Shown piece by piece: positions 9,284 through 49,542 of a stretch of DNA of 49,734 nucleotides. Numbering within the stretch: the stretch's first letter is position 1; each line of letters opens with the position of its first letter. Source of the stretch: Burkholderiales bacterium (lineage in GTDB: Bacteria > Pseudomonadota > Gammaproteobacteria > Burkholderiales > SG8-41); NCBI GenBank assembly GCA_046597455.1, contig JBKJKJ010000415.1:1-49734 (forward strand), given 5' to 3'. The notes beneath the pieces were generated by a model. The model made no database searches, had not been told where the DNA came from, and saw nothing but the letters and a program-made list of their open reading frames with translations. The position numbers and the translations under genes are program-made.

Positions 9284-10155
9284 GCGCTTCCATTCTGTGC
9301 CAGCGTGACGCTTCATCCCACATCGGCCGTATCGTCATCCAGCGGGCCGACAAATCCAACGCGTTCACCATCGAGATGGTCAACGCCTTTCGCGAGGCGC
9401 TGAGCGAGCTGGAGCGCGACGACAGCATCAAGGTGATCGTCATCTGCGCCGCAGGCGAGAACCTGACGCGCGGATTCGATCCCGCGCAGGTCGAGCAGAT
9501 CTTCAAGTCAGCGCCAGGGGGCGCCAGCCGCAAGGTCCCCAGCCAGCGGGCGCGGCTCCTCGCATTGGACGCGCTGTGGTGGGGGCCGAACGGCCTTTAC
9601 GGACGGCTGTTGCACTGTCCCAAGATCACCATACTCGCCGCCAAAGGCCTGTGCCATGAAGTGGGCCTTTATCTCACGCTTTATTCGGATCTGGTGTTCG
9701 CGTCCGAAAACGCGCGTTTCGCCAATCCGAGATGGCGGCACGTCGGTGTCGATGGCGATATCTCCATGCTGGTTGCCGCGGTGGGTCTGAAGCGTGCCAA
9801 AGAGCTCATGTATTGCGGAATGGAGTGGTCCGCGCGGGACGCGCTGGCGTACGGTCTGATCGACGAGGTCGTGAGCGAGGCGAGCCTGGAGGAAACCGTC
9901 GACACGACAGCCGCGCTGTGCACCCAGGTCATGCGCGACGGCATCGTCACCGAAAAGCACGTCGTTTTCGCGTCGCTGGCAAAAATGCAGATCGATACGG
10001 GCCTCGCGACGGCGGCCGTGATCGGCGGCTGGGCGAGCAACGTGCATTTCCGTCCGGGCGAATTCAATTTCCTGCGGGAAGTGAAAAATTCAGGCCTGGA
10101 TGCCGCGCTCGATGCGAGCGACGAGTATTTCAAGCGCTGGCCACGAAAACAATGA
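9280..10155 (+). CDS. Crotonase superfamily protein (atypical)
   Basis: ATGA overlap; I.RADKSNAF, IKVIVI, PKITILAAKGLC, SDLVFASENARFANP, GLKRAKEL, GLIDEVV. Confidence 0.85.
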   Translation: MSASILCQRDASSHIGRIVIQRADKSNAFTIEMVNAFREALSELERDDSIKVIVICAAGENLTRGFDPAQVEQIFKSAPGGASRKVPSQRARLLALDALWWGPNGLYGRLLHCPKITILAAKGLCHEVGLYLTLYSDLVFASENARFANPRWRHVGVDGDISMLVAAVGLKRAKELMYCGMEWSARDALAYGLIDEVVSEASLEETVDTTAALCTQVMRDGIVTEKHVVFASLAKMQIDTGLATAAVIGGWASNVHFRPGEFNFLREVKNSGLDAALDASDEYFKRWPRKQ

Positions 10156-11387
10156 ACGTCCCGATGAAGTCTCCGACGCGTGCCCCGACGCGTGCCCCAC
10201 TGGCAGGTCTGCGTATCGTCGAAGTCTCTGCATTCATCGCGGCGCCACTTTGCGCGATGACGCTCGCTCAACTCGGCGCCGAAGTGATCCGGATCGATCC
10301 GATAGGCGGCAACATCGACTACAACCGTTGGCCCCTGGCGCCCAACGGGAACAGCATTTACTGGGCGAGCCTCAACAAAGGCAAGCAGTCGGTGACGCTG
10401 GCCCTGGAGACACCCGAGGGCCAGGACCTGGCTCGCGCGATCATGTGCGCGCCCGGCGCGAACGCCGGCATCGTCGTGACGAATCTGCCAGCGAAGGGAT
10501 GGATGAGTTACGAGGCCCTGGCGCAACATCGCGCCGATCTCATCATGATGCGACTCGTTGGGAACTTCGATGGCTCGGCTGCGATGGACTACACCATCAA
10601 CTGCGCGAGCGGTTTCCCGATCGCCACGGGTCCGAGCCGCGAACCCGTCAACCACGTGCTGCCCGCATGGGATGTCTCGGCCGGTCTGTATCTGGCGTTG
10701 GGCGTGCTCGCAGCCGAACGCACCCGCCAGCGCGAGGGTACGGGGCAGGAGGTGGTGCTCGCACTGTCCGATGTCATGCTCGCTGCCGTCTCGAGTCTGG
10801 GTTATGTCGCCGACGTCCAGATCAACGGCAGCTCGCGTGAGCCGATCGGCAACGATTTGTACGGCGCGTTCGGCCGCAACTTCAAAACGGCCGACCAGCG
10901 AGAAGTCATGCTCGTAGCCATTTCGGAGCGGCAGTGGAAAGCGATCGGCAAGGCGACGGGGCTCACCGTAAAATTCGACATGATCGGCCCACTCATGGAA
11001 GTCGACCTGGGCACCGAAAGCGGGCTTTTCACGGCGAGGCACGCCATTGCTGCAGTCCTGGCGCCCTGGTTTGCTACCCGCACGCTCGAGCAGGTCAAAG
11101 AGGCCCTCAACGGCTCCGGCGTGCTCTGGGGCGTCTATCTGGATTTCAGGCAGCTCGTCGACGAAGATCGCCGCTGCTCTACTGACAATCCGATGTTCAC
11201 GACGGTGGATCAGCCGGGCATCGGCCAGGTTCTGTCGGCGCGCTCTCCGCTCGCATTTACGCGCGATGACGTGCCGCAAGCCTGCGCGGCGCCGGTCCTG
11301 GGCCAGGACACGGCGTGCGTGCTCGAAAACCTGCTCGGTCTTGCGCCCGCAGAAATCGGCCGCTTGCGCGAGCGGCGCGTGCTGTGA
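10152..11387 (+). CDS. mct: Mesaconyl-CoA C1:C4 CoA-transferase (2-methylfumaryl-CoA isomerase)-like family III CoA-transferase
   Basis: SAFIAAPLCAMTLAQLGAEVIRIDPIGGNIDYNRWP, CAPG.NAG, DYTIN, VNHVLPAWD, LYGAFGR.F, CSTDNPMF: segments I recognise from Chloroflexus-type Mct; ATGA overlap with the upstream gene. Confidence 0.8.
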   Translation: MNVPMKSPTRAPTRAPLAGLRIVEVSAFIAAPLCAMTLAQLGAEVIRIDPIGGNIDYNRWPLAPNGNSIYWASLNKGKQSVTLALETPEGQDLARAIMCAPGANAGIVVTNLPAKGWMSYEALAQHRADLIMMRLVGNFDGSAAMDYTINCASGFPIATGPSREPVNHVLPAWDVSAGLYLALGVLAAERTRQREGTGQEVVLALSDVMLAAVSSLGYVADVQINGSSREPIGNDLYGAFGRNFKTADQREVMLVAISERQWKAIGKATGLTVKFDMIGPLMEVDLGTESGLFTARHAIAAVLAPWFATRTLEQVKEALNGSGVLWGVYLDFRQLVDEDRRCSTDNPMFTTVDQPGIGQVLSARSPLAFTRDDVPQACAAPVLGQDTACVLENLLGLAPAEIGRLRERRVL

Positions 11388-11516
11388 CGCAGCTTCACAG
11401 CTGTTGTTCCCGCCATCGAGCAGGAAACTGCCTGTCCCCAAGCTCTCCTGCGACGCAGCGGGTTTTGGGCGCGAAGTAACCACGAACGACGTCGCACTTC
11501 GATTGAGGTGAAAAGC

Positions 11517-12284
11517 ATGGATGCACAAACGCCGGTAACGTATGAAGTTCATGATGAAGTCGCGCTCATCACGATGCGCAGACCCGACAAGCTCAATGCG
11601 GTGAACGCTGCCATGCGAGAGGGCATCATCGCGTCCTTTCTGCGTTTCGAGGCGGATGAGGGTGCGAAAGTCGCCATCCTGACCGGCGAGGGCAAAGCGT
11701 TCTGCGCAGGTGCCGACCTGAAGGAGATGGCCGAGACCGGCAAGACGATCCCCGGCGCGAAAGCGATCCCGCATATCGGCCGCACCCTCAATATTTCCAA
11801 AGTGACGATTGCGCAGGTGAACGGCATCGCCTATGCGGGCGGTTTTCTGCTCGCGCAGATGTGTGATTTGTGCACGGCATCGGACAACGCGGCTTTCGGG
11901 CTGACTGAAGTGCGCTGGGGGCGGGGCGCGCCGTGGGCGACGCCGCTGATCTGGATGCTGCCGCAGCGCGTGATGATGGAATTGCTCGTGACAGGGGAGC
12001 CGCTTTCCGCGAAGCGTGCGTATGAGCTGGGTTTCATCAACCGGCTGACGACTCCGGAGCGCCTGGCCGAGGAGACGATGACGCTCGCGCGCACGATCAT
12101 CGCGAATGCACCGCTCGGTGTGAAGGCCGGACGCCAGCTCACGTATGCGGCGACGGAGATGGGGCGCTCGGCGGCTTTCCCGGTTGGGGACCTGTGCTTC
12201 GAGCAGTCCTATCGCAGCGAAGACGCGCTGGAAGGACCGCGCGCATTTCGCGAGCGCCGCGCACCCCAGTGGAAAGGACGTTGA
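11517..12284 (+). CDS. Enoyl-CoA hydratase/isomerase family protein
   Basis: ITMRRPDKLNAVN, ILTGEGKAFCAGADLKE, VNGIAYAGG, FGLTEV, EGPRAF.ERRAPQWKGR. Confidence 0.92.
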   Translation: MDAQTPVTYEVHDEVALITMRRPDKLNAVNAAMREGIIASFLRFEADEGAKVAILTGEGKAFCAGADLKEMAETGKTIPGAKAIPHIGRTLNISKVTIAQVNGIAYAGGFLLAQMCDLCTASDNAAFGLTEVRWGRGAPWATPLIWMLPQRVMMELLVTGEPLSAKRAYELGFINRLTTPERLAEETMTLARTIIANAPLGVKAGRQLTYAATEMGRSAAFPVGDLCFEQSYRSEDALEGPRAFRERRAPQWKGR

Positions 12285-39831: not shown

Positions 39832-40173
39832 CTACGGCAGCTCGAGCTTTGCCGCGACAGCCGCGGAGGCGATCACGATGGGATCGTGACCCTCTTCGCG
39901 CGGCACGTCCAGGCCGCCCTTGACGACCTTGACCGTCACTTGCCCGCGCGGCAGGCTGGCTTTCACCGTTGCAGCATCCACGCGGTCGGGCTGCTGCACG
40001 CCGATCGTGACTTCCACCTGCATCGCCTTCGAATCGAGCCCGAGTGAGCTGATCACGCTCAGGGACGAGTGGTGGAGTGCGTCCTGCACCGCACGCAGCG
40101 CGGCCTTGGTGTAGTCCCCGCCGTGCAGATCGTTGCCGGTGCCCATCTCGAGTATGACGCGTTTCAATGGCAT
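39832..40173 (-). CDS. Lin0512 family protein
   Basis: KRVILEMGTGNDLHGGDYTKAALRAVQDAL.H.S, V.VVKGGL. Confidence 0.9.
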   Translation of the reverse strand: MPLKRVILEMGTGNDLHGGDYTKAALRAVQDALHHSSLSVISSLGLDSKAMQVEVTIGVQQPDRVDAATVKASLPRGQVTVKVVKGGLDVPREEGHDPIVIASAAVAAKLELP

Positions 40174-40186
40174 GTTGTCGACCCCC

Positions 40187-40528
40187 TCAGGCGATGTCGA
40201 GGCGCACGATTGCCGCAGCATTGGCAATCACGGTCGAGCTCGTGCCCGCATCGTTGAATATCTCGAGCCCGCCTTCGACCACCATGACCGTCCCGGTGCC
40301 GTGCGGCAAAACGGCCAGGATCTCGGCCGTGTTCACCCGCTCCGGTTTGGGCACGCCGATCAGGACTTCAACCACCATCGAATCTGTCGGCTTACCCAGC
40401 GCGTCGGCGACGTTGAGCGAGTTGTGCCACAGCGCGTCGCGCAATGCGCGCACAGCGGCCTTGGTGTAATCGGCGCCCCGTATGTCGGTGCCCATGCCGA
40501 TTTCGACTACCACGCGTTTCATGGCCAT
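40187..40528 (-). CDS. Lin0512 family protein
   Basis: KRVVVEIGMGTDIRGADYTKAAVRALRDAL.HNS, LPHG...V.VVEGGL. Confidence 0.9.
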   Translation of the reverse strand: MAMKRVVVEIGMGTDIRGADYTKAAVRALRDALWHNSLNVADALGKPTDSMVVEVLIGVPKPERVNTAEILAVLPHGTGTVMVVEGGLEIFNDAGTSSTVIANAAAIVRLDIA

Positions 40529-40693
40529 CTTGAAATCCTTTCGCTGGTGCTGAATGCACACGCACGGTTCCCGATGTAACCCATCGAGTAGAGCGCCGCG
40601 GTTGATGCTACAGTAAATGCCACGCTCAGCGCCACGTCCTCGTCGGCCGACAACGCATAACGCTGCGACCGATACTGCACAAGGAGGAACAGA

Positions 40694-42865: not shown

Positions 42866-42997
42866 CACCCTTGGTTTGATCCCGAGGCTGCGACCCTTTT
42901 TACCGCACGCATCTCCAAAAGTCGAGCGACCGCATGGCGGCTTTTCCCGAGGCTGAAAACCACGGCACGACGTTACAGGCCGCGCGAGCCCCGCCCC

Positions 42998-44200
42998 TCA
43001 CGAACCCTTCAGGCTCTCCGGGCCGAAAGGATGAGGCAGCAGCTCGGGAAGCGTCATCACGCGTTCCACGCCCTCGCCGGATGCGAGGTGGATCCGGGCG
43101 TTGCGCGCGAGCTCGTGCATCACCTGCCGGCATGCGCCGCACGGCGTCGTGAGGATCACGCCTTCGGTGTAGACCGTGATCTCGCGGATATCGTAAAAAC
43201 CGGCCGCCACGGCGGCAGCGATGGCATTGCGTTCGGCACACATGGTCGATCCGGTCGCGGCGTTCTCGACGTTACAGCCGGAGAAAATCCGGGATACCGA
43301 GTCTTTCATCGCGAGCACCGATGCCCCTACGCTGAATCCCGAATACGGCGCGTAGGCGTTGTCGCGCGCGGCGCGTGCTGCTGAAACCAGTGCGGGGACC
43401 GATGCGAGGGCAGGTGCAGACGGGGGCGCTGCGGCGATCGCCTCTGGCGCCGGTGCGCGCTGTTTCGCCAGTCGCCAGCGTACGAAAATCGGCAGCATGA
43501 CCGTGCAGAACAGAACTGCACCGATCGCGATCACGGTCGCCGCGACGACGTTCGAATACCACGTGCTCGTCATCCAGTTGGCGGTGACGTCTTCGTTCAG
43601 GTGCACGTAGATGTACCACGGCAGCAGTCCCGCCACGGCGGCGAGCCAGTAGAAAATGCTGATCCACACCACAGCGCCGGTGTGGCGGATCGCCGCCAGC
43701 ATGTCGTGGTGAATATAAGGCGGCCAGTTGGCGCGTGCGGCGCGTTTCAGCTCGCCTTCGAACGCGTACCCCGCGTAGAAAATAGCGCTGAGCAACTGGT
43801 GATAGACCTTCGCGTCGATCAGCCAGATGAGCAGCGTGCCGAGCGTGGCGAGGAGCCCGATGCCGAGTATGAGGAGACTCACGCGCCGCACGTGCGCGAG
43901 CGAGGCTCTGGGCTCTTCGGGGGACACCGACTGCGACTGTGGCGGGGGCTCGATGCCGCGCTGCAGGCCAGGCGGCATCTGGGCCGCTGCCGCCTGGGCG
44001 GCGCGCGCCTCATGGGCCGCCTTGACCGCCGGATCCGGGCTGGTCATGAAATAGCCGATCGCGGCATAGGCAGCAAGGAGCAGGGTGATGGCGAGCTGAC
44101 GGTACTTGAACTGGAGCTCGTTGAAGTCGCGGCAGGCCTTGGCGATATCCGATATCGCCATCCAGGCCTGCTCGTAGGTCAGGCGCGCGCGATCGCTCAT
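42998..44200 (-). CDS. 4-TM membrane protein fused to a C-terminal cytidine deaminase domain
   Basis: GGGAG RBS; four hydrophobic helices, a Pro/Ala linker, then AYAPYSGF.VGA, GCNVENA, CAER, PCGACRQ, LLPHPF of homotetrameric Cdd (domain about 42998-43393). Confidence 0.85.
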   Translation of the reverse strand: MSDRARLTYEQAWMAISDIAKACRDFNELQFKYRQLAITLLLAAYAAIGYFMTSPDPAVKAAHEARAAQAAAAQMPPGLQRGIEPPPQSQSVSPEEPRASLAHVRRVSLLILGIGLLATLGTLLIWLIDAKVYHQLLSAIFYAGYAFEGELKRAARANWPPYIHHDMLAAIRHTGAVVWISIFYWLAAVAGLLPWYIYVHLNEDVTANWMTSTWYSNVVAATVIAIGAVLFCTVMLPIFVRWRLAKQRAPAPEAIAAAPPSAPALASVPALVSAARAARDNAYAPYSGFSVGASVLAMKDSVSRIFSGCNVENAATGSTMCAERNAIAAAVAAGFYDIREITVYTEGVILTTPCGACRQVMHELARNARIHLASGEGVERVMTLPELLPHPFGPESLKGS

Positions 44201-44235
44201 GGCGTCTCCCTTTGCTCAGGACGCAGCTTAGCCGA

Positions 44236-44327: not shown

Positions 44328-44389
44328 CGACAATTCGTTTCTGCATTAACATAAACTGCACTCGACCATGGAAAACGGGGAGGCGTTGC

Positions 44390-45121
44390 ATGGGGCTCCT
44401 GGAGGGGAAGACCGTCGTCATGACGGGCGGGGGCGGCGGGCTGGGACGCGCCTATGGTCTTGCGCTCGCGCACGCCGGCGCCGCCATCGCGGTATCGGAC
44501 ATCGACCTCGAAGCTGCAGGCGCGACTGCGCAGGCCATCATCGCAGCAGGCGGCAAGGCGATTGCCGTTCAGGCGGACGTGACGCAGGCGGCTGCATTCG
44601 AGCGTCTGTTCGATCGCGCCGAAGCCGAGCTCGGCGCGCTCGACGTATTACTGAACCTCGCCGGCACCTTTCCCAAGAACGCGCTCGCCGATCTGCCGGA
44701 GGCGGAGTGGGACGCGGTCATGACGCTCAATCTGAATAGCGTATTCCTGGGCTCGCGCGCTGCGGTGAGACGGATGGTTCCGCGCAGGCGGGGCATCATC
44801 GTAAGCGCGGCGTCCGGCACTGCGGCCCGGGGCGTACCCCGAGGCTCGGCTTACACCGCATCCAAGGCAGGCATCATCAGTTTTACGCGCTCGGTGGCGC
44901 TCGAGTTGAAGGATACCGGTGTGCGAATCAACTGTTTCGCGCCCGGTCCGACCGACACGGCGCTGTGGCGCGAAGGCCGGAGCGAAGCGGACATCGAGCG
45001 CGTGGTGTCCTCGCGCCTCGTCTATCAACCCGATGAATTTTCCAGCGTGGTCGTTTTTCTCGCGAGTGACCTGTCGGCGCCGCTCAACGGCGAATTCATC
45101 AATCGCGATCTGGTCCGCTGA
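44390..45121 (+). CDS. Short-chain dehydrogenase/reductase
   Basis: TGGGGGLG, NLAG, YTASK (YxxxK), RINCFAPG; GGAGG RBS. Confidence 0.93.
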   Translation: MGLLEGKTVVMTGGGGGLGRAYGLALAHAGAAIAVSDIDLEAAGATAQAIIAAGGKAIAVQADVTQAAAFERLFDRAEAELGALDVLLNLAGTFPKNALADLPEAEWDAVMTLNLNSVFLGSRAAVRRMVPRRRGIIVSAASGTAARGVPRGSAYTASKAGIISFTRSVALELKDTGVRINCFAPGPTDTALWREGRSEADIERVVSSRLVYQPDEFSSVVVFLASDLSAPLNGEFINRDLVR

Positions 45122-47354: not shown

Positions 47355-48206
47355 TCAGTCGGACTTGCGGGGCGCGTACACCGCGTGGCCATCCCCCGCG
47401 ATGAAGCCCCGGGGCGCGACGCCCAGGCAGCGCCGGAACATCGTCGAGAACGCGCTCGGGCTTTCGTAGCCGAGGTCCATCGCGACCGTCGTCACGGGTG
47501 CGCCTTCGGCCAGACGACGAATCGATTCGAGTAGCCGGGCCTGCTGCTTCCAGCGCGCGAAGGTGATTCCGGTTTCTCTCAGGAAGCGCCGGTACAGGGT
47601 GCGGGAGCTCGTCTGCATGGCGTTGGCGTCGAAGCCGCACGGCCTGCGCGTCGACAAGTCCTCGAGTATGCGTTCGCACAATTGCGTCAGATCGGGGCTC
47701 TCGGGCAAAGGCAGGTCGAGCGCGCACTGCGGCAGGCACCGGATCTCCGCCATCAGCAAACGCATGAGCAGGCCGTCATCCCCGTGCTCGTCGTAGCCCA
47801 CGGGCAGCGCGACGGCGCGCACGACCAGCTCGCGCAGGAGCGGTGTCACGTCGAGCACGACGCACGAGGACGGCATGCCCGCTGCAGCCGCACCATTCAC
47901 ATAGAGGCTGCGCATTTCGACGCCGCCGTACATCTGGATCTCGTGCACGGTGTGCGAAGGCACCCACAAGGCGCGGCTGGGCGGCACGATCCAGGCCCGG
48001 CGGGGTGTGCGCACCGCCATCGTGCCCTCGACGGCGAAAACGAACTGGGCGCGGGCGTGCCAGTGCGGTTTGACGTGATGGCCTTTGGGATACGACGAAC
48101 GCCGCGTGACGATGGCGCGCGTGCTCTCGCCCTCGACGGGACTTTCGGGGACCGATGACAGATCGACCTCGTCAGGCGGGTGGGCGGCCGGGAGTGTAAT
48201 GTCCAT
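47355..48206 (-). CDS. AraC family transcriptional regulator (cupin + HTH, NimR-like)
   Basis: HWHARAQ, WIVPPSRALWVP...HE, SRTLYRRF..ETG.TF..W, LGYESPSAFSTMFRR. Confidence 0.92.
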   Translation of the reverse strand: MDITLPAAHPPDEVDLSSVPESPVEGESTRAIVTRRSSYPKGHHVKPHWHARAQFVFAVEGTMAVRTPRRAWIVPPSRALWVPSHTVHEIQMYGGVEMRSLYVNGAAAAGMPSSCVVLDVTPLLRELVVRAVALPVGYDEHGDDGLLMRLLMAEIRCLPQCALDLPLPESPDLTQLCERILEDLSTRRPCGFDANAMQTSSRTLYRRFLRETGITFARWKQQARLLESIRRLAEGAPVTTVAMDLGYESPSAFSTMFRRCLGVAPRGFIAGDGHAVYAPRKSD

Positions 48207-48300
48207 TTCTAGGGGGTTGGATGTAAAAGCTCGAGAGCAGGACGATTGTAGCCGAGGGAAACTCGGGGCGCACCCTCCTACCCTCTTCGAGTGATCACCC

Positions 48301-49542
48301 ATGTCGCTGGCGCCCTCCGCTTCCAACGCTCCCGCCCTGCCGCCGGACACAGACACGGCCGTCTGGTCCCCGATCGTGAGCCTGTTGCTGAACATCGCGC
48401 ACGGCATCGATCACATGTTCCTGCTGATCTTCGCGACCGCGGTGGGAACGATCGCGATCGAGTTTGGTTACACGAACTGGGCTGATCTCATGCCGTACAG
48501 CGTGGGCGCATTTGCACTGTTCGGCCTGGGGTCGCTGCCCGCCGGGAGGCTGGGCGACCTGTGGGGCCGCCGCGCCATGATGGTCATTTTCTTCGTCGGG
48601 ATCGGCGTGGCGGCATTGCTCACGGCGCTCACGCAAAATGCGTGGCAGCTCGCGATCGGGCTCATGCTCATCGGGATGTTCGCTTCGATCTACCACCCCG
48701 TAGGTATACCGATGCTCGTGCAGAATGTTCCGAATCCGGGCGCAGTGATCGGTGTGAACGGCTTTGCCGGCAATATCGGGATCGCGGTCGCCGCGCTCGT
48801 GACCGGCTTGCTGATCAAGTGGATCGGCTGGCGGGCCGCGTTTGCCGTGCCGGGCGTCCTCGCCATCCTCTTCGGTGTCGTCTTTGCCGTGGTGTGTCCG
48901 CCGGAGACCGAGGCGCCTTCGAAGCGCAAGGGCAAAGCGAAAGTCTTGCTGTCGCCCGCCATGCTGGTGCGGGTGTTCGCGGTCATGACCGTGGCTGCCG
49001 TCGCCGGCAGCCTCGTCTTCAACCTCACGACCAACGGCAACTCGCAACTGCTGTCCGAGCGGTTTCGCGGCGTGCTCGAAGATCCTGCCGTGCTGGGCGC
49101 ACTGCTCGCGGTGATTTACACCGTGGCGTCGCTCGCGCAGCTCGTCGTCGGGCGGCTGATCGACAGCATGCCTTTCAAGCCGCTGCAGCTGTGGATGTCC
49201 GTCATCCAGGTGCCGCTGCTGATCATCGCGGCGTACGCGCAGGACTGGTGGCTGTTCGTGGCGCTGCTGGCCGTGATGATTTTCGTATTCGGTTCGATTC
49301 CGTTCACCGACGCGATGATCGTGCGCTACGTCGACGACCGGCTGCGCTCGCGCGTGGCGGGGATGCGGCTCACGGTGGCCTTCGGCATCAGCTCGCTCGC
49401 CGTGTGGCTGCTCGGACCGATGGTCAAAGGCATGGGTTTCGCGGCGGTGCTCTGGGTGATGGCGGTGATCGCCGCGCTCAGGACCGCTATCGTTCTGTTG
49501 TTGCCTGACGAGCCGCCGACGCAGGACCCCGCGCGGACCTGA
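48301..49542 (+). CDS. MFS transporter
   Basis: About 12 TM segments, motif A GRLGDLWGRR, second-half GRLID; divergent from the AraC gene. Confidence 0.92.
   Translation: MSLAPSASNAPALPPDTDTAVWSPIVSLLLNIAHGIDHMFLLIFATAVGTIAIEFGYTNWADLMPYSVGAFALFGLGSLPAGRLGDLWGRRAMMVIFFVGIGVAALLTALTQNAWQLAIGLMLIGMFASIYHPVGIPMLVQNVPNPGAVIGVNGFAGNIGIAVAALVTGLLIKWIGWRAAFAVPGVLAILFGVVFAVVCPPETEAPSKRKGKAKVLLSPAMLVRVFAVMTVAAVAGSLVFNLTTNGNSQLLSERFRGVLEDPAVLGALLAVIYTVASLAQLVVGRLIDSMPFKPLQLWMSVIQVPLLIIAAYAQDWWLFVALLAVMIFVFGSIPFTDAMIVRYVDDRLRSRVAGMRLTVAFGISSLAVWLLGPMVKGMGFAAVLWVMAVIAALRTAIVLLLPDEPPTQDPART

Follow-up and report, generated by a model that had tools for sequence, protein, structure and literature searches.

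A four-helix membrane module joined to an intact cytidine deaminase in a Burkholderiales bacterium: a candidate one-gene conflict system

In AvcD/dCTP deaminase defence, a zinc deaminase strips the cell of cytosine-containing precursors and thereby starves the phage. Another described arrangement, Hydrolase-TM, associates an enzyme with a transmembrane (TM) protein: in Rousset et al. 2022 (PMC9122126), a HAD-like hydrolase and a transmembrane protein from a P4 hotspot are described as inhibiting T7, the membrane protein being proposed as an abortive-infection effector. The system seems also to be listed as Rst_Hydrolase-3Tm. Here, we describe a gene, termed TM-Cdd, in a stretch of 49,734 nucleotides (nt) from a Burkholderiales bacterium of the SG8-41 lineage (contig JBKJKJ010000415.1, assembly GCA_046597455.1; this whole stretch is called the window). 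TM-Cdd is a real, conserved gene for an inner-membrane protein in which a four-helix membrane module is fused to an intact cytidine deaminase (CDA). We tentatively favour its interpretation as a one-gene “enzyme + membrane module” conflict system in phage defence, a reading that we hold to be quite possible, if short of probable; what we infer are its part in defence, how control is directed and which substrate it uses, and these are weighed below against other explanations.

A previous reading of the window made from its letters (the sequence-only reading) had claimed one continuous open reading frame (ORF) of 400 amino acids (aa) with an N-terminal helix, four TM segments, a Pro/Ala linker and a complete Cdd domain. 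All of these are seen in the ORF, as are the motifs quoted there (DFNELQFKYRQLAIT, WLIDAKVYHQLLSAIFYAGYAFE, CAE and PCGAC). The ORF is uninterrupted from its ATG start codon to its stop codon and lies on the minus strand, a specification absent from the earlier account. No in-frame ATG, GTG or TTG occurs at residues 236–294, which agrees with the claimed lack of an internal start before the Cdd part; the latter therefore cannot be made separately, and a separate start for it is ruled out. The coordinates of all features are collected in Table 1.

The C-terminal part of the protein has the sequence marks of a CDA of the homotetrameric type. Residues 271–398 score 121 bits against TIGR01354 (homotetrameric cytidine deaminase; cut-off 113.65), or 123.9 bits in the genome search, and PF00383 matches the Cdd part at 1.4e-15. 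The zinc ligands and the catalytic Glu (C321, E323, C354 and C357), kept in 90% or more of the family, are all present and line up with those of solved CDAs; the Cdd part of the AlphaFold2 (AF2) model matches the solved tetrameric enzymes with TM-scores of 0.80–0.89 at 39–45% identity. CNVENA, CAE, PCGACRQV and LLPxxF are kept in residue-level alignments to the human, mouse and B. pseudomallei CDAs. CNxEN is the ribose-binding motif of these enzymes, and both it and the C-terminal LLPxxF have functional roles. The domain had been called intact, and the passed TIGR01354 cut-off together with the alignment of all motifs to solved CDAs upholds this. The Thr in place of the usual Tyr after ENA, which had also been pointed out, is confirmed, at a position that varies in the family (SYG, AYG, ASG, AGG, ATG, SFG). 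By these sequence features, TM-Cdd would carry a catalytically complete, nucleoside-type deaminase domain on the cytoplasmic side of the inner membrane.

In the N-terminal part, Kyte–Doolittle hydropathy in 19-residue windows gives four peaks, at residues 44–45, 108–123, 183–190 and 222–236. The helix that precedes TM1 has nine invariant residues in the fused family (alignment A1), namely W13, R24, F26, N27, L29, Q30, F31, Y33 and Q35, and its residues 9–36 are part of the predicted self-interface described below. A second cluster of invariant residues in A1 follows TM2 (D129, Y133, L137, F141, E148); across the 104 sequences of alignment A3, D129 and E148 are invariant, while W126, Y133, L136, L137, F141 and P161 are kept in at least 90%. 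The loop at residues 54–106 is 49% Pro/Ala/Gln and is short in the stand-alone family introduced below; the predicted local distance difference test score (pLDDT) dips there. That score averages 73.4 over the full-length AF2 model and falls below 50 at linker residues 249–264. Lys and Arg number none in residues 201–218, five in residues 129–175 and three in the stretch after TM4, and with these loop charges an N-in/C-in topology fits, which is in keeping with the claim that both termini lie on the same side.

Table 1. Features of the TM-Cdd locus and of one homologous locus (window coordinates unless a locus is named)
Feature	Position	Strand	Basis or remark
Whole ORF, 400 aa: membrane module + linker + cytidine deaminase	42998..44200	minus	stop codon 42998-43000
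Shine-Dalgarno-like GGGAG, 6-10 nt 5' of ATG	44206..44210	minus	read from upstream sequence
N-terminal helix, residues 9-36, conserved, cytoplasmic, runs on into TM1	44093..44176	minus	A1; AF2 helix 9-53
TM1, residues 37-53	44042..44092	minus	hydropathy peak; AF2 helix
Pro/Ala/Gln loop, residues 54-106, long, variable, low-complexity, probably periplasmic	43883..44041	minus	
TM2, residues 107-128	43817..43882	minus	hydropathy; AF2
Cytoplasmic helical segment, residues 129-175, conserved	43676..43816	minus	A3; hhalign A1 vs A2
TM3, residues 176-200	43601..43675	minus	hydropathy; AF2
Short loop, residues 201-218, without Lys or Arg, probably periplasmic	43547..43600	minus	
TM4, residues 219-241	43478..43546	minus	hydropathy; AF2
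Basic stop-transfer stretch (RWRLAKQR), then Pro/Ala linker, residues 242-270	43391..43477	minus	
Tetramer-type cytidine deaminase domain, residues 271-400	43001..43390	minus	CNVENA, C321-A-E323, P353-C-G-A-C357, C-terminal LLPHPF
Terminator-like hairpin + short T-run, 13 nt past stop	42965..42985	minus	consensus match only
CapV-like patatin	L009:11448-12512		PADLOC CBASS effector model

The fusion recurs elsewhere. A word-indexed search over 5.8 billion proteins, in which 8000 candidates were scored, returned 38 matches at E ≤ 0.001: the query itself, 14 proteins of full architecture, one that matches the membrane part only (P0016) and 22 that match the Cdd part only (P0017–P0038). The 14 fused homologues (P0002–P0015; 383–515 aa), all from other assemblies, keep the entire architecture at 34–48% identity to the query in A1. 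They cover 97–99% of the query in 13 instances; the remaining one, P0013, covers 57% by BLAST, yet aligns end-to-end with an insertion. These full-length homologues bear out that the fusion is real, and they rule out both an assembly artefact and a singleton. A second, shorter form of TM + Cdd is found in P0166 (377 aa; a cluster of seven members). It may have arisen independently; in a Cdd tree of 38 rows, from which 12 near-identical cluster members were dropped, it sits on a long branch with weak support.

Membrane-only relatives with the same long loop are P0016, P0039 and a frameshifted copy in a metagenome contig. The last (L012:3-789) is the nearest relative of the membrane part, being 56% identical; a frameshift splits it, and no Cdd domain stands behind it. 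Where the sources name these proteins at all, the name is “cytidine deaminase”. The sequence-only reading knew of no described protein with this architecture, and none was found by title or abstract in open-access PMC and bioRxiv; the same sources yielded no description of a membrane-bound or transmembrane cytidine deaminase.

The TM-Cdd gene is accessory: the fusion occurs in none of 12 same-genus genomes and in none of 40 relatives, four of which have a Cdd-like match, in all cases to the Cdd part only. Amongst GTDB species representatives, the sole locus found likewise matches the Cdd part only, and no further fused copies turned up in the class and order genome samples, where members of the membrane-module family were seen in 0 of 399 other genomes (class) and in 3 of 400 (order). 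The named hosts of the module family are diverse (Acidobacteria, Pseudorhodoferax, Longimicrobium, Geodermatophilus).

The membrane module itself belongs to no named family. Residues 1–265 match no Pfam family, and against the PDB the module gave no Foldseek match at E ≤ 0.001 and no sequence-profile match at E ≤ 10. An exhaustive HMMER search through 1.84 billion representatives brought up 221 proteins at E ≤ 0.001, of which 19 reach E ≤ 1e-10 and eight E ≤ 1e-30. Stand-alone proteins about 200 aa long make up most of them; these are matched in two stretches, one on either side of the place of the long loop. The fused family (A1) aligns with a 50-sequence alignment of this stand-alone family (A2) at 99.8% hhalign probability (E 2.1e-29) over 144 columns, by which the membrane part is clearly homologous to a rare family of stand-alone membrane proteins of that size. 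Two stand-alone members (L018, L020) each occur alone between housekeeping genes. Other fusion partners of the module are Cupin_2 (P0083, P0095, P0106 and, weakly, P0092) and Big_2 (P0116). In P0128 (408 aa), the membrane module is tandemly duplicated within one protein.

The module is also predicted to self-associate. Modelled with the stand-alone family alignment, it reaches a pLDDT of 88.7 and a predicted template-modelling score of 0.80. Four copies of residues 1–250 gave complex scores of 0.61, 0.61 and 0.66, against 0.00 for the best control, with a contact agreement of at least 76% and a partner pLDDT of at least 65 in the tetramer runs; 20 of 30 solved homomers and one of 23 single chains attained the mark used, a calibration that is rough for four copies and a custom alignment. 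The predicted interface is head-to-tail and involves the conserved N-terminal helix with TM1 as well as TM2 with the helix that follows it, and we read this arrangement, as modelled, as a possible cyclic oligomer.

What carries the conflict-system interpretation is the company that this module keeps elsewhere. The metagenomic protein P0256 (769 aa) consists by Pfam of TIR_2 and nSTAND1 domains with the module at its C-terminus; the A2 profile finds it at E 5.5e-50, and A1 aligns with it at 97.9% hhalign probability (E 5.9e-13) over query residues 8–199. P0256 appears in itself to be a membrane-embedded STAND protein. In genome G651 (L019:4904-6881), a gene for a SIR2-like protein of 395 aa is followed after 80 nt, on the same strand, by a 236-aa stand-alone member of the module family. 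The SIR2-like protein matches PADLOC Aga_SIR2 at 1.9e-13 and Pfam SIR2_2 at 4.5e-5 (24.0 bits, just below the cut-off of 24.5). This pair may represent an undescribed two-gene “SIR2 + TM” system.

A third connection leads to Hydrolase-TM. Nineteen of the 29 module-family members scanned match the PADLOC Hydrolase-TM model PDLC03009, at E 2.5e-7 to 5.9e-3. This model describes a membrane protein, since it matches both a 150-aa three-helix protein and the C-terminal part of P0257 (520 aa), a fused HAD hydrolase + TM protein in which PADLOC “Hydrolase” covers residues 4–286 (4.7e-88) and PDLC03009 residues 294–459 (5.6e-38). P0257 is also found with the A2 profile, at E 4.2e-7. By these profile matches, the module family appears to be distant kin of the membrane partner in the Hydrolase-TM anti-T7 system. 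In the Cdd-only set, we came across fusions of a HAD hydrolase with Cdd (P0022, P0025, P0026, P0028 and P0031), the Cdd domains of which group with those of the TM-Cdd family (81/94 support, unstarred). The idea of a “HAD-Cdd-TM triangle” was dropped because none of the five HAD parts match the defence hydrolase model.

A fourth observation comes from the surroundings of a fused homologue. At locus L009 (identical to L010 and L011), a gene for a CapV-like patatin, which matches the PADLOC CBASS phospholipase effector at 6.1e-55, lies 242 nt downstream of the TM-Cdd homologue, and the locus also includes Trypco2, SpvB/TcdB-like and PLD genes; no cyclase match was obtained amongst the eight ORFs scanned there. 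L008 does not extend far enough to provide context.

A mechanism for a conflict system of this build could run as follows. Module 1 (residues 1–245) would be a four-helix, self-associating unit with a conserved cytoplasmic face (N27, Y33, R34, D129, Y133, E148), and module 2 (residues 271–400) a cytoplasmic cytidine/deoxycytidine deaminase of the homotetrameric type, tied to it by a flexible linker of about 25 residues. The oligomeric membrane module would sense, or respond to, infection at the envelope and, via the linker, would control the assembly of the four Cdd domains; once assembled, these would deaminate the pool of cytidine/deoxycytidine (or of nucleotides), or their action would be coupled to membrane damage. 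This linker, with a pLDDT below 50, is long enough for a D2 tetramer to be suspended from membrane modules that lie in one plane. Tetrameric CDAs have active sites to which more than one subunit contributes, so that a change in the oligomeric state of the ring could activate the enzyme. In P0256, the module takes the C-terminal place at which a STAND protein normally has its sensor, which favours a sensor or anchor role for the module over that of a pure effector. A bolder generalisation, which we regard as doubtful, is that the four-helix module is an unnamed, ring-forming membrane sensor/effector domain of bacterial conflict systems that can be plugged onto various nucleotide-targeting enzymes (a HAD hydrolase, SIR2, TIR-STAND or Cdd), and that it gates Cdd tetramer assembly here, making TM-Cdd a one-gene system that is set off at the membrane and acts by abortive infection or by depleting pools.

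Several observations weigh against a defence role. The surroundings of TM-Cdd offer nothing in its support: amongst 46 scanned ORFs or sub-ranges of the window (44 of the 46 called ORFs, the ORF at 47355-48407 and the sub-range 44381-45121 of a longer ORF), no phage, integrase, transposase or recognised defence gene was found, and of six neighbours scanned with PADLOC one matched, a luciferase-like oxidoreductase, to the generic candidate model C3a156 (2.6e-9). Only two contexts of the fused family are informative, the window and L009, and they have no neighbour in common. The composition of the gene is native (GC content as well as GC3, its value at third codon positions, which is 0.81 vs 0.79–0.84 for the neighbours). 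No PADLOC model matches the Cdd part, and at E ≤ 1 the query matches no PADLOC deaminase model, nor any other PADLOC model apart from a weak match to Hydrolase-TM. That match, of the query itself to PDLC03009, has an E of 0.029 and spans residues 13–54 only; the close relatives P0002, P0009, P0015, P0016, P0039 and P0166 have no PDLC03009 match at E ≤ 0.01, and A1 aligns weakly with P0257 (hhalign probability 8%, E 0.004). The module has not been met on mobile elements either: single-query tblastn found no match of the N-terminal module of the window in 72,556 plasmids and none of the stand-alone P0044 in the same plasmids and 50,697 phage records, and a profile-pattern scan of IMG/VR with A2 gave no match. 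Furthermore, tetrameric CDAs act on nucleosides, and a phage is hit less hard by nucleoside depletion than by the deamination of dCTP. The TM-Cdd gene is moreover the only TIGR01354 match in its 87%-complete genome (620 contigs), and a NupC-type nucleoside transporter is encoded in this genome, on another contig.

The defence idea of the sequence-only reading thus stands in part: the kin of the module are fused to TIR-nSTAND1, encoded beside a SIR2-like gene and distantly connected with Hydrolase-TM, as against a window in which no defence genes were found and a Cdd that is the only one found in its genome. It had also proposed a look at how close homologues lie to defence islands: one fused homologue, at L009, is surrounded by conflict-type genes, and the window is no defence island. 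The analogy that it drew with the gated effectors of CBASS and Pycsar finds no support, no cyclase or signal-producing enzyme being present amongst the scanned window genes. Outright membership of Hydrolase-TM was considered and rejected: no HAD domain is found in the TM-Cdd protein, in the six PADLOC-scanned neighbours or in the window Pfam scans, and the PDLC03009 and hhalign values given above are marginal.

The strongest competing explanation, serious although in our view somewhat unlikely, is that TM-Cdd is an ordinary salvage cytidine/deoxycytidine deaminase tethered to the inner face of the membrane, for instance near a nucleoside importer, with the module as an anchor or scaffold that plays no part in conflict. 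It would account for a Cdd domain that scores above a curated equivalog cut-off with all catalytic and ribose-binding motifs kept, for the native composition amidst metabolic neighbours, and for a sole Cdd accompanied by a NupC-type transporter. The sequence-only reading had proposed looking for a separate housekeeping cdd; the 87%-complete genome yielded none, and because of this a plain metabolic role has to be taken seriously. In addition, fusions of Cdd with metabolic partners are frequent (pyrimidine nucleoside phosphorylase, a phosphopentomutase-like metalloenzyme, HAD, YbeY), and P0023 (575 aa) joins Cdd to another membrane protein, the transporter-like CNNM-CBS-CorC. However, for a bare anchor, four helices in which polar residues are invariant would be superfluous, as would an existence as a stand-alone protein; the other partners of the module are TIR-STAND, SIR2 and a HAD hydrolase; most relatives of the organism live without any Cdd; and the importer gene is not on the same contig. 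Enzymes that would use the uridine product were not found either: the genome has two PNP_UDP_1 genes, but Udp, Udk, IU-nucleoside hydrolase and pyrimidine nucleoside phosphorylase gave nothing above cut-off, which is soft evidence at 87% completeness.

We consider it very unlikely that the membrane part is a distant RipA/8xMP-like oligomer with a housekeeping role in envelope homeostasis, to which Cdd was merely added. In ESM-Atlas features, residues 1–250 are nearest to 8xMP/RipA clusters (score 0.90–0.91, 21 of 30 matches), a score of 0.9 that, by the tool's own account, is however reached by 4–10% of shuffled proteins. Sub-threshold Pfam 8xMP matches occur in three of 29 family members, precomputed PF24838 assignments exist for two, and the overall order of helices is similar to that of 8xMP. 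In contrast, hhalign of A2 with 11 8xMP proteins (A4) is not significant (probability 0.5%, E 0.13), and PF24838 misses both the query (at E ≤ 1) and the window gene in a whole-genome search; membership of 8xMP/RipA (PF24838) is not supported by these hidden Markov model and hhalign results.

Least probable of all, and highly improbable in our estimate, is the detoxification of cytosine-nucleoside antibiotics or analogues at entry, in the manner of blasticidin S deaminase and with the module positioning the enzyme where uptake occurs. In its favour, this accessory gene has a sporadic distribution, and the Cdd part of the model does match blasticidin S deaminases (TM-scores 0.67–0.73, 28–31% identity), but ordinary cytidine deaminases match far better (0.80–0.89, 39–45%) with the TIGR01354 cut-off passed, and the window Pfam scans reveal no antibiotic-biosynthesis or resistance genes nearby.

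As to the window at large, its genes encode by Pfam TauD, NHL-repeat, SDR, luciferase-like, AraC, MFS and TctC/Bug proteins, CoA-transferases, AtuA and two-component regulators; they are catabolic, transport and regulatory genes, to which TM-Cdd is functionally unrelated, as had been claimed. The hairpin after the TM-Cdd stop codon suggests a monocistronic gene; it is a consensus match only, of a kind found five times in the region against 0.7 expected, with three of the five inside coding sequence. Ten genes for TctC/Bug periplasmic receptors are scattered over 3078-47351 amid genes for CoA-transferase, AtuA, TauD and acyl-CoA dehydrogenase. At 39832-40561 on the minus strand, two Lin0512_fam genes (131 and 124 aa) stand in tandem with a slight overlap. 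An ORF of 697 aa at 9681-11774, also on the minus strand, has no Pfam match at 1e-5 and a GC3 of 0.68, below that of its neighbours; on the opposite strand, an ORF of 551 aa overlaps with it, and it is doubtful which of the two, if either, is real.

Should the defence interpretation be true, tethering to a membrane module would have sufficed to bring a nucleoside deaminase of the housekeeping type into immunity. A portable membrane domain would then be common to HAD-TM, SIR2-TM, TIR-STAND-TM and Cdd-TM, and TM-Cdd would provide a handle on the mechanism of the validated Hydrolase-TM system. If salvage is the true role, integral-membrane cytidine deaminases would here form a conserved family, the first that we have come across, of relevance to nucleoside uptake and channelling.

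Compared with described systems, the C-terminal 130 residues of TM-Cdd have their fold and catalytic motifs in common with the homotetrameric Cdd enzymes (B. subtilis, 1JTK; human, 1MQ0; B. pseudomallei, 3DMO). Known members of that group are soluble proteins of about 130 aa, whereas TM-Cdd is 400 aa long and has a 265-residue N-terminal membrane region. For the octameric 8xMP/RipA family, the resemblance lies in the similar helix order and in its being the nearest language-model cluster, as opposed to any significant HMM or profile–profile match. The module is C-terminal in P0256, where it is joined to a TIR-STAND core, and N-terminal in TM-Cdd, where it is joined to a deaminase. With the AvcD/dCTP deaminases, TM-Cdd would share the concept proposed here; it differs from them in that it is a nucleoside-type CDA rather than a dCMP/dCTP-type enzyme, has no kinase-like domain and is membrane-bound. 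Hydrolase-TM uses a HAD hydrolase, occurs in a P4 satellite hotspot and has its enzyme encoded adjacently, in contrast to the Cdd of TM-Cdd, which is fused to a module of four helices with a long loop. In both, nevertheless, an enzyme is combined with a membrane protein in which an FN-motif helix at the N-terminus, a TM hairpin and a helical segment in the cytoplasm recur, and TM-Cdd may work like Hydrolase-TM.

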